Shown here piece after piece: positions 7,937 through 8,097 of a DNA stretch of 64,000 nucleotides. A program made the translations under genes and the position numbers. The notes under the pieces were generated by a model. The model had not been told where the DNA came from, made no database searches, and saw only the letters and a list, made by a program, of their open reading frames with translations. Origin of the DNA: an uncultured delta proteobacterium (GTDB taxonomy: Bacteria > Myxococcota > UBA727 > VGSZ01); NCBI GenBank assembly GCA_963775425.1, contig CAVZJB010000009.1:208616-272615 (forward strand), read 5' to 3'. Within the stretch, counting starts at the first letter, position 1. Every line of letters begins with the position of its first letter.

Positions 7937-8097
7937 AGGCAGAAGGCAAGAAGGCAAGAAAGGCAAGAAGGCAAGAAGGCAAGAAGGCAAGAAGGCAAGA
8001 AGGCAAGAAGGCAAGAAGGCAAGAAGGCAAGAAGGCAAGAAGGCAAGAAGGCAAGAAGGCAAGAAGGCAAGAAGGCAAGAAGGCAAGAAGGCAAGAA
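7937..8097. repeat. tandem array of an 8-nt unit GGCAAGAA x ~20
   Basis: ggcaagaaggcaagaagg... with one gaaagg variant. On the minus strand it lies 43-203 nt upstream of the FG-GAP start codon. Confidence 0.9.

Follow-up and report, generated by a model that had tools for sequence, protein, structure and literature searches.

An octanucleotide tandem array beside an FG-GAP gene that is inverted relative to related loci in an uncultured myxobacterium

The octanucleotide array upstream of the FG-GAP gene

We analyzed a stretch of 64,000 nucleotides (the window) from contig CAVZJB010000009.1 of an uncultured myxobacterium, in which a minus-strand gene for an FG-GAP/VCBS-repeat protein with an N-terminal hydrophobic segment (6530..7861) is directly preceded by a tandem array of an octanucleotide. 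On the minus strand, the coding strand of the gene, the unit of this array reads TTCTTGCC. Tandem Repeats Finder places (TTCTTGCC)n at 7906..8099 (-) with 24.5 copies (period 8, 93% matches, score 323), which makes it the top-scoring short-period array of the 64-kb window. An earlier, sequence-only reading of this DNA had reported about 20 units at 7937-8097 directly upstream of the FG-GAP gene. The array is indeed real and adjoins the gene, but only its near-perfect part had been counted, and the 'pyrimidine-rich leader' described next to it is actually the decayed proximal end of the array itself.

The perfectly periodic part of the array (7960-8099) comprises 140 nt or 17.5 units and thus qualifies as the kind of long uninterrupted run that is prone to slippage; such a perfect core implies recent or ongoing slippage. 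The approximately seven gene-proximal units (7906-7959) have decayed to TTTCTTGC, CTTCTGCC, TTCTCCCC, TTCCCCCT, TCTGCTTT and CTTGCCTT. Such an anatomy, in which the core is perfect and the units have decayed towards the promoter, is what slippage with homogenization typically produces. The array holds 17 occurrences of the motif CTTGCCNNCTTGCC when at most one mismatch is allowed, and the rest of the window holds one more; 0.36 occurrences are expected from shuffled sequences.

The G+C content of the array is 52% as compared to 71.5% for the window, and its coding strand is without any A. Two observations support that the array is non-coding. The G+C content at third codon positions (GC3) is about 0.5 across the array and 0.92 in the FG-GAP gene, and the array is missing from all FG-GAP homologues in an alignment of their N-termini. 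An open reading frame (ORF) starting at ATG 8215 does run through the array into the gene (6530-8215), because the 8-nt unit holds no stop codon in any frame. A coding function of the array was nevertheless rejected on the basis of the GC3 values and the lack of any homologue with this segment.

The presence of the array is confirmed as an observation. The organism is represented by one assembly, and the 90% cluster of the FG-GAP protein has one member on one contig. An exact-protein search and the encoding-contig index gave no record, and a scan of genome contigs yielded relatives with at most 66% protein identity. A perfect tract of exactly 140 nt equals k-1 for k = 141, a common k-mer size in metagenome assembly, so that the true number of octamers may exceed that of the assembly: two contig ends could have been joined on a 140-nt overlap, or a repeat loop could have been traversed minimally. 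The assembled copy number may thus be a lower bound, a flag that comes from an assumed k. Going further, the array or its length could have been produced by short-read metagenome assembly as such, and tandem repeats are a known source of assembly errors (PMC6868369). We regard such an artefact as highly unlikely, since the decayed units and the unique flanks on both sides indicate a real locus, since the units of the second array described below vary and no perfect tract in it exceeds 76 nt, and since an artefact of this kind would change the copy count and not create an array.

Probable start codon and promoter of the FG-GAP gene

Assignment of the FG-GAP gene is based on a Pfam match to FG-GAP_3 (2.3e-9), on the GC3 of 0.92 for the ORF 6530-7894(-) and on 48 homologues that were found. 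The public protein P0001 (454 aa, from a 394-kb contig of a metagenome-assembled genome), which is identical to the product of the window's gene, starts at ATG 7894, and the sequence-only reading had used the same start. However, nearly all of 30 aligned homologues begin about 17 residues ahead of a conserved P-x-x-x-(V/I)-D-G motif, and this position corresponds to GTG 7861 in the window. The public start codon therefore appears misplaced and probably lies 33 nt too far upstream. ATG 7894 instead falls within the -35-like hexamer of the promoter described next.

Upstream of orthologous genes the pattern TTGCAC-N16/17-TAGNAC-N5-10-GTG recurs. Among the related loci, it takes the form TTGCAC-N17-TAGACG-N6-GTG in L002, TTGCAC-N16-TAGAAC-N6-GTG in L003, TTGCAC-N17-TAGCAC-N10-GTG in L004, TTGCGG-N17-TAGCAA-N6-GTG in L005 and TTGCGC-N17-TACACG-N5-GTG in L001. 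At the equivalent place in the window, a putative core promoter (7867..7894 (-)) consists of the -35-like hexamer ATGCAT (7894-7889), N16, the -10-like hexamer TAGAGG (7872-7867), N5 and GTG 7861. This would be a leaderless-type arrangement, placed here by homology only. In the relatives only about 95-190 nt are present upstream of the FG-GAP gene, and the promoter homology ends where the array starts.

Relative to the promoter placed in this way, the octamer array extends from about -45 to -238 and is located upstream of the -35 hexamer, outside the spacer between the hexamers. Gain or loss of units thus leaves the distance between -35 and -10 unchanged, and the array does not have the 'classic' spacer architecture which the sequence-only reading had invoked for a slipped-strand variable promoter.

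A second array and a long inverted repeat enclosing the gene

Three further features of the locus had been overlooked in the sequence-only reading, namely a second array, a 229-nt inverted repeat and an inversion of the FG-GAP gene, and together they indicate a structural origin of the octamer array. The second tandem array, (CAAGGAGGCGCGC)n, is located at 6387..6526 (-), comprises 10.8 copies of a 13-nt unit and begins 4 nt past the FG-GAP stop codon. On the coding strand its unit consists of the palindrome GGCGCGCC and a spacer, either AAGGA or GAGGA, so that the array contains 11 Shine-Dalgarno-like AGGAGG motifs and folds as a chain of 8-bp G+C hairpins (-102 kcal/mol). In a distant relative (L011, 45% protein identity), a 13-nt array of GCGCGCCAGCCGG x3.8 is present at 3769-3817, again directly past the stop codon; in the same register the window's array reads GCGCGCCAAGGAG. 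A 13-nt hairpin repeat following the FG-GAP stop codon may thus be old.

Both arrays and the FG-GAP gene are enclosed by the inverted repeat. One arm (IR-L, 8128..8352) adjoins the octamer array, while the other (IR-R, 6094..6321) adjoins the 13-nt array and is located directly upstream of lgt, the gene for prolipoprotein diacylglyceryl transferase (5207..6064 (-)). The arms are 85% identical over 229 nt, with a 144-nt core at 90%, and each folds into several G+C hairpins (z = -3.9). At its outer end, hairpin-rich IR-L takes in the T-run of the intrinsic terminator (8357..8386 (-), a 13-bp stem followed by a T run) of the next gene upstream, which encodes a conserved 313-aa membrane protein without a Pfam match (8426..9367 (-)) and is co-directional with the FG-GAP gene in the window. 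The alignment of the two arms reaches into this T-run (CTTTTTTGCGCGC vs GTTTCTTGGCGCGC), and IR-L therefore looks like the original intergenic region between two convergent genes. A third copy of an arm was not found in the 64-kb window, and neither the inverted repeat nor the 13-mer sequence gave a match in 13 related loci, 100 metagenome loci or viral contigs. A search of 5900-8700 against Rfam yielded only a sub-threshold match, which is the terminator hairpin (21 bits vs a gathering score of 37).

Some details of the flanking sequences are reported here for completeness. The 313-aa gene's stop codon and the hairpin of its terminator (8386-8357) are separated by a 16-nt direct repeat without mismatches (CCGCAGCCGATCGACC x2.1, 8389-8422). 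The start codon of lgt, GTG 6064 (MHPVL), is conserved with L004, and an apparent leaderless-type promoter precedes it in both genomes (window 6065-6100, TACAGA-6 nt-GTG 6064; L004 838-900, TAACAC-6 nt-GTG). The outer end of the inverted repeat extends to the expected site of the lgt -35 hexamer.

The FG-GAP gene is inverted relative to its relatives

Gene order could be read in eight related loci (L001-L004 and L006-L009), which are metagenome contigs or metagenome-assembled genomes of Myxococcota or 'Deltaproteobacteria' with 47-67% protein identity. In all eight, the FG-GAP gene is encoded on the same strand as the genes for YscJ/FliF-like and FliG-like proteins and is convergent with the 313-aa gene; in the window it is on the opposite strand. 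Where lgt is included in the locus (L002, L004 and L006), the FG-GAP gene is divergent from it, whereas in the window lgt is co-directional and downstream. The FG-GAP gene is the sole flipped gene in the window's neighborhood, as a direct comparison of gene orders reveals. This neighborhood is otherwise conserved (window 8426-12443 and eight Myxococcota loci) and consists of the genes for the 313-aa membrane protein, a YscJ/FliF-family protein and a FliG-like protein, with the FG-GAP gene and lgt alongside; in the window as well as in L003, a TrkA-type potassium channel gene comes next.

The two arms differ at 10-15% of their positions. Every junction therefore is unique sequence, which makes it unlikely that the orientation of the gene is an assembly ambiguity, and the inversion event must be regarded as old. 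An Arg-rich C-terminal tail of the FG-GAP protein is common to the window and its relatives, so that the 3' end of the gene was not the breakpoint.

Invertible DNA segments, or invertons, are typically bordered by short (tens of bp), near-identical inverted repeats, usually flank a promoter and have a recombinase encoded nearby. The segment described here resembles them in being located between inverted repeats and in having an orientation opposite to that of its relatives. Unlike in invertons, however, the arms are atypically long and diverged (229 nt, 85% identical), and a whole gene is enclosed together with its own promoter. Furthermore, Pfam scans of 29 candidate ORFs, which cover the surroundings well within about 15 kb and partially beyond (leaving out roughly 27-30, 34.6-36.3, 39.3-42.3, 43.1-44.6 and 46.5-48.3 kb), revealed no domain of a recombinase, integrase or transposase. 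These results do not support an active site-specific inverton.

A related idea is that of a flip-flop cassette of the whole gene. The 229-nt arms would let promoter and gene reverse between an orientation convergent with the 313-aa gene and one that reads into lgt, and array length would set either expression or the rate of flipping. The two inverted arrays would then act as boundary elements, possibly reiterated protein-binding or structure-forming ones of a widespread and so far uncharacterized class, for which paired tandem-octamer sites of Geobacter and certain metagenome hairpins (both described below) would be candidate members. We judge this, including its proposal of such a class of elements, to be very unlikely.

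A proposed minisatellite at the seam of the inversion

Our preferred explanation, to which we assign a probability of roughly 0.4, is that the octamer array is a minisatellite which grew by slippage at the seam of a lineage-specific single-gene inversion and which now forms an upstream spacer of variable length. We infer the following order of events and a common seed of the two arrays from the arrangement of the locus. The ancestral order would have been lgt (-), then the promoter and the FG-GAP gene (+) with its hairpin-rich 3' region, and finally the 313-aa gene (-) facing it. Promoter, gene and 3' flank would have been flipped as a single block, while a copy of the 3' flank was kept at the old site, giving rise to the 229-nt inverted repeat. 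The retained copy, IR-L, would now face the FG-GAP promoter, and it is exactly this junction that the octamer array fills. The array was perhaps seeded by a short CAAGGAGG-like sequence, which on the other copy, carried along with the gene, would have grown into the 13-mer array. Today the array would serve, if it is active at all, as a length-variable and less G+C-rich spacer between the core promoter and the block of hairpins and terminator, and it would then probably tune expression of the FG-GAP gene and not switch it.

In line with this proposal, the octamer array and the 13-nt array are found at equivalent places inside the two arms and in inverted orientation. Seven of eight positions agree between their cores (CCTTCTTG vs CCTCCTTG), a likeness that a common seed would give, at periods of 8 and 13.

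Several points weigh against the seam minisatellite. The likeness of the repeat units may be due to chance (P about 0.06-0.09), and homology of the inverted repeat up to the arrays themselves is not significant (P = 0.24 for a wide region and 0.05 for a narrow one). As the closest relative shares only 67% protein identity, the ancestral non-coding sequence is not reconstructable. Small arrays abut the -35 hexamer also in L001 and L005, which do not carry the inversion, so that a junction is not needed for seeding. The inverted repeat might also be a member of a family of dispersed elements and not the product of a local duplication, copies having been counted in the window. Finally, the -35-like hexamer of the window is weak (ATGCAT), and a scan of 5900-8600 with the sigma-70 consensus found no promoter; with an empty scan in DNA this rich in G+C, conservation is the only basis for the placement of the promoter.

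A different structural origin, in which the breakpoint of the inversion was inside a terminator of the type array-loop-array, was also considered. Such a split hairpin would leave the two arrays in direct orientation and not in the observed inverted one, and this origin was rejected.

An inversion that is flanked by inverted copies of one sequence is also the textbook product of intramolecular replicative transposition. The arms could thus be copies of a non-autonomous mobile element with sub-terminal tandem repeats, whose transposition generated both the inversion and the second, inverted copy, and the arrays would belong to the element itself. The abundance of hairpins in the arms (see above) would fit such an element, and a minisatellite-carrying miniature inverted-repeat transposable element is known from Porphyromonas gingivalis (PMC4596501). 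On the other hand, no third arm turned up in any of the DNA searched, no transposase or recombinase domain was detected among the 29 ORFs scanned, and no terminal inverted repeats are evident within an arm. An arm that takes in the terminator T-run of the neighboring gene is also better explained as local sequence. Taken together, a mobile element seems improbable to us.

A possible influence of the array on expression

The slipped-strand hypothesis of the sequence-only reading can be upheld insofar as the array is non-coding, is located upstream of the gene and contains a slippable run of identical units, and as small arrays occupy the same spot in L001 and L005; its weak point is the location upstream of the -35 hexamer. 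In this modified form, the array would be part of a level-variable ('rheostat') or phase-variable promoter, in which slippage alters how far, and in which helical phase, an upstream site is placed relative to the core promoter, or alters an UP-like zone. Heritable and reversible expression differences of a cell-envelope FG-GAP protein would result. Precedents for tracts upstream of -35 are found in nadA of Neisseria meningitidis, (TAAA)n (PMC2791445), and in vlhA of Mycoplasma gallisepticum, (GAA)n, where the GAA repeats are located about 40 nt upstream of the start site (PMC6258824). As in these two systems, the tract in the window is upstream of the putative core promoter, and the number of units would shift distal spacing or phase. 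In nadA and vlhA, about 6-12 copies of a 3-4-nt unit are flanked by operator or conserved sequences, and variation among strains is documented. The window differs from them in its 8-nt unit, its approximately 24 or more copies and the lack of a recognizable distal site.

Within the locus itself, the array with its 140-nt perfect tract ends 11 nt from the -35-like hexamer, and the product of the gene is plausibly exposed, as judged from its N-terminal hydrophobic segment and FG-GAP repeats. Two loci out of the closest five have unrelated small arrays that end 1-2 nt from the -35 hexamer (CATCGA x6.2, 100%, in L001 and GTCCTGCG x3.9 in L005), and with small arrays at the same spot in two relatives a level-variable promoter remains conceivable. 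However, the non-coding DNA of the related genomes contains 15 small arrays in about 10.4 kb, and the 8 beside FG-GAP genes compare with about 5.6 expected, which is no clear excess over this background. The genome of the window also grows arrays without an evident switch, as exemplified by the large array 3' of the FG-GAP gene and a 30-nt array at 33331-33434. Moreover, the tract is outside the -35/-10 spacer, no distal operator can be identified upstream of it, and the FG-GAP gene is conserved, single-copy and syntenic and does not belong to a variable gene family. The evidence comes from one assembly, and we consider a variable promoter, the main rival of the seam minisatellite, possible but doubtful.

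A second mode of action would be that of hmw1A/hmw2A in non-typeable Haemophilus influenzae. There, 11-63 units of (ATCTTTC)n are transcribed from the first repeat onwards, and the RNA pairs with a nearby G-rich stretch (PMC12721329); copy number sets the level of expression and is not an on/off switch (PMC12721329, PMC8262952). Like hmw, the window has tens of copies of a pyrimidine-rich 7-8-nt unit immediately ahead of a gene whose product is, or here plausibly is, exposed at the surface. By analogy, the array could be a transcribed element of the 5' untranslated region, in which the pyrimidine-rich repeat RNA, comparable to AUCUUUC, and a purine-rich partner would base-pair into a long hairpin; processing of this hairpin by RNase III would set the mRNA level. 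CAAGGAGG of the 3' array could indeed pair with CCUUCUUG. This only complementary partner, however, is 1.4 kb distant, and no hairpin is predicted: the fold of 8000-7830 (-41.3 kcal/mol, z = +1.2) is equaled or surpassed by 181 of 200 shuffled sequences. In addition, the window's homologous promoter is downstream of the array and predicts a leaderless mRNA, while a strong terminator and the hairpins of the inverted repeat are found upstream of the array. An hmw-like RNA hairpin is thus not supported and, in our view, extremely unlikely.

The octamer unit in other DNA and comparison with known repeats

In metagenome contigs from JGI, three tandem TTCTTGCC units were detected in at least 100 contigs. 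Among the 100 contigs listed as matches, the G+C content ranges from 34% to 72% and the arrays comprise 3-47 units; in 34 of them the array is part of an ORF that extends 150 nt or more beyond it in both directions. In viral contigs, two permuted octamers of the same composition gave 1 and 2 matches as compared to 1 for TTCTTGCC. As permuted octamers are equally frequent, the unit is not treated as a marker of a repeat family. A literature search for the unit sequence returned primer matches only.

A further explanation, already named in the sequence-only reading, is a multimeric binding array. A nucleoid-associated or global regulator would then bind repeatedly to the octamers (xTTGCCxx) and perhaps also to the inverted 13-mer array. 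In Geobacter metallireducens, 24 pairs of sites with four tandem octamers each (GTTGCTYN), on opposite strands and at variable distance, have been described and proposed to bind global regulators (PMC2700814). Like classes 1-3 of these Geobacter elements, the octamer array of the window consists of tandem 7-9-nt units in non-coding DNA of a former 'deltaproteobacterium', it might form an opposite-strand pair with the 13-nt array, and the class 1 consensus GTTGCTYN resembles the window unit CTTGCCTT (PMC2700814). The window also holds two inverted arrays with similar cores, and five metagenome contigs of about 70% G+C carry the arrangement (NNCTTGCC)n-loop-(GGCAAGNN)n. The Geobacter sites, however, consist of 3-5 units and are present in tens of copies per genome, whereas the arrays of the window comprise 24.5 and 10.8 units with different periods and form one pair in 64 kb. 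A series of 24 identical units is far above any known operator, an 8-bp spacing sets successive sites on different faces of the helix, the octamer unit forms only one array in the 64 kb, the counts in viral contigs show no preference for it, and the Geobacter sites themselves are only predictions. We therefore give a binding array only a small chance.

With regard to the metagenome contigs just mentioned (L026, L051/L055, L098 and L108), (NNCTTGCC)n, a short loop and inverted (GGCAAGNN)n form long hairpins of 8-nt repeats. In L026 and L108 the octamer array begins a few bases past a stop codon, and these hairpins may be terminator-like. Long arrays of another octamer, CTTCTTGN (11-36 units), are present in L057 (1240-1530), L106 (5430-5620) and L109 (1790-2077). 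In L057 and L106 they are located beside heptamer arrays (GAATTCA, GGAGTCA), the reverse complements of which agree with MTYCTGA, the class-3 consensus of Geobacter.

Short tandemly repeated repetitive (STRR) heptamers of heterocystous cyanobacteria and bacterial variable number of tandem repeats (VNTR) loci or minisatellites are non-coding arrays that have grown by slippage, mostly without a demonstrated function. The array of the window resembles STRR and VNTR loci as a non-coding tandem array with a unit of 7 nt or longer. It differs from STRR sequences, which occupy many loci per genome, in that its octamer unit forms one array in the window. Simple sequence repeats with units of 6-9 nt have rarely been reported from bacteria (PMC4692102). 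Overall, the octamer array belongs to a known kind of sequence, that of bacterial non-coding tandem repeats near promoters.

Other features of the window

The 30-nt array mentioned above (3.4 copies, 98% matches, 33331-33434) is intergenic, and downstream of it is a 381-aa ORF that starts at ATG 33475 and has no Pfam match. With its end about 27 nt ahead of a -10-like TATCCT, it is a second promoter-proximal array in the window. An 801-aa protein encoded at 30798-33203 matches the Major Vault Protein domains MVP_shoulder (1.4e-15) and Vault_3 (2.7e-8); proteins of the vault type are uncommon among bacteria. Coding repeats (399-nt x 5 and 129-nt x 4) are found at 48289-54717 in the gene for a 2142-aa repeat protein with DUF11, bacterial cadherin-like and TSP3 domains. 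The gene for an N6/N4 DNA methylase (12444-13355, 1.8e-47) has an unusually low G+C content of 0.55 at the first codon position. Finally, the product of 56389-58077 has an FtsH ternary system X7 domain (fvmX7, 1.6e-13), and its gene adjoins ORFs without Pfam matches.

Conclusions

Overall, the locus is noteworthy mainly for its symmetric architecture around a flipped, otherwise conserved gene. As a practical caution, the true start of the FG-GAP gene is probably 33 nt downstream of the public start codon, and the real array may be longer than the assembled one. To our knowledge, simple-sequence switching has been studied almost only in host-adapted pathogens. If the copy number of the octamer array were variable and tied to expression, the locus would be of the contingency type, in a free-living uncultured myxobacterium and with an unusually long 8-nt unit and a leaderless promoter. 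Either way, it represents a natural example of how inversion of a single gene and duplication of its 3' flank may rewire an upstream region and seed two different minisatellites.

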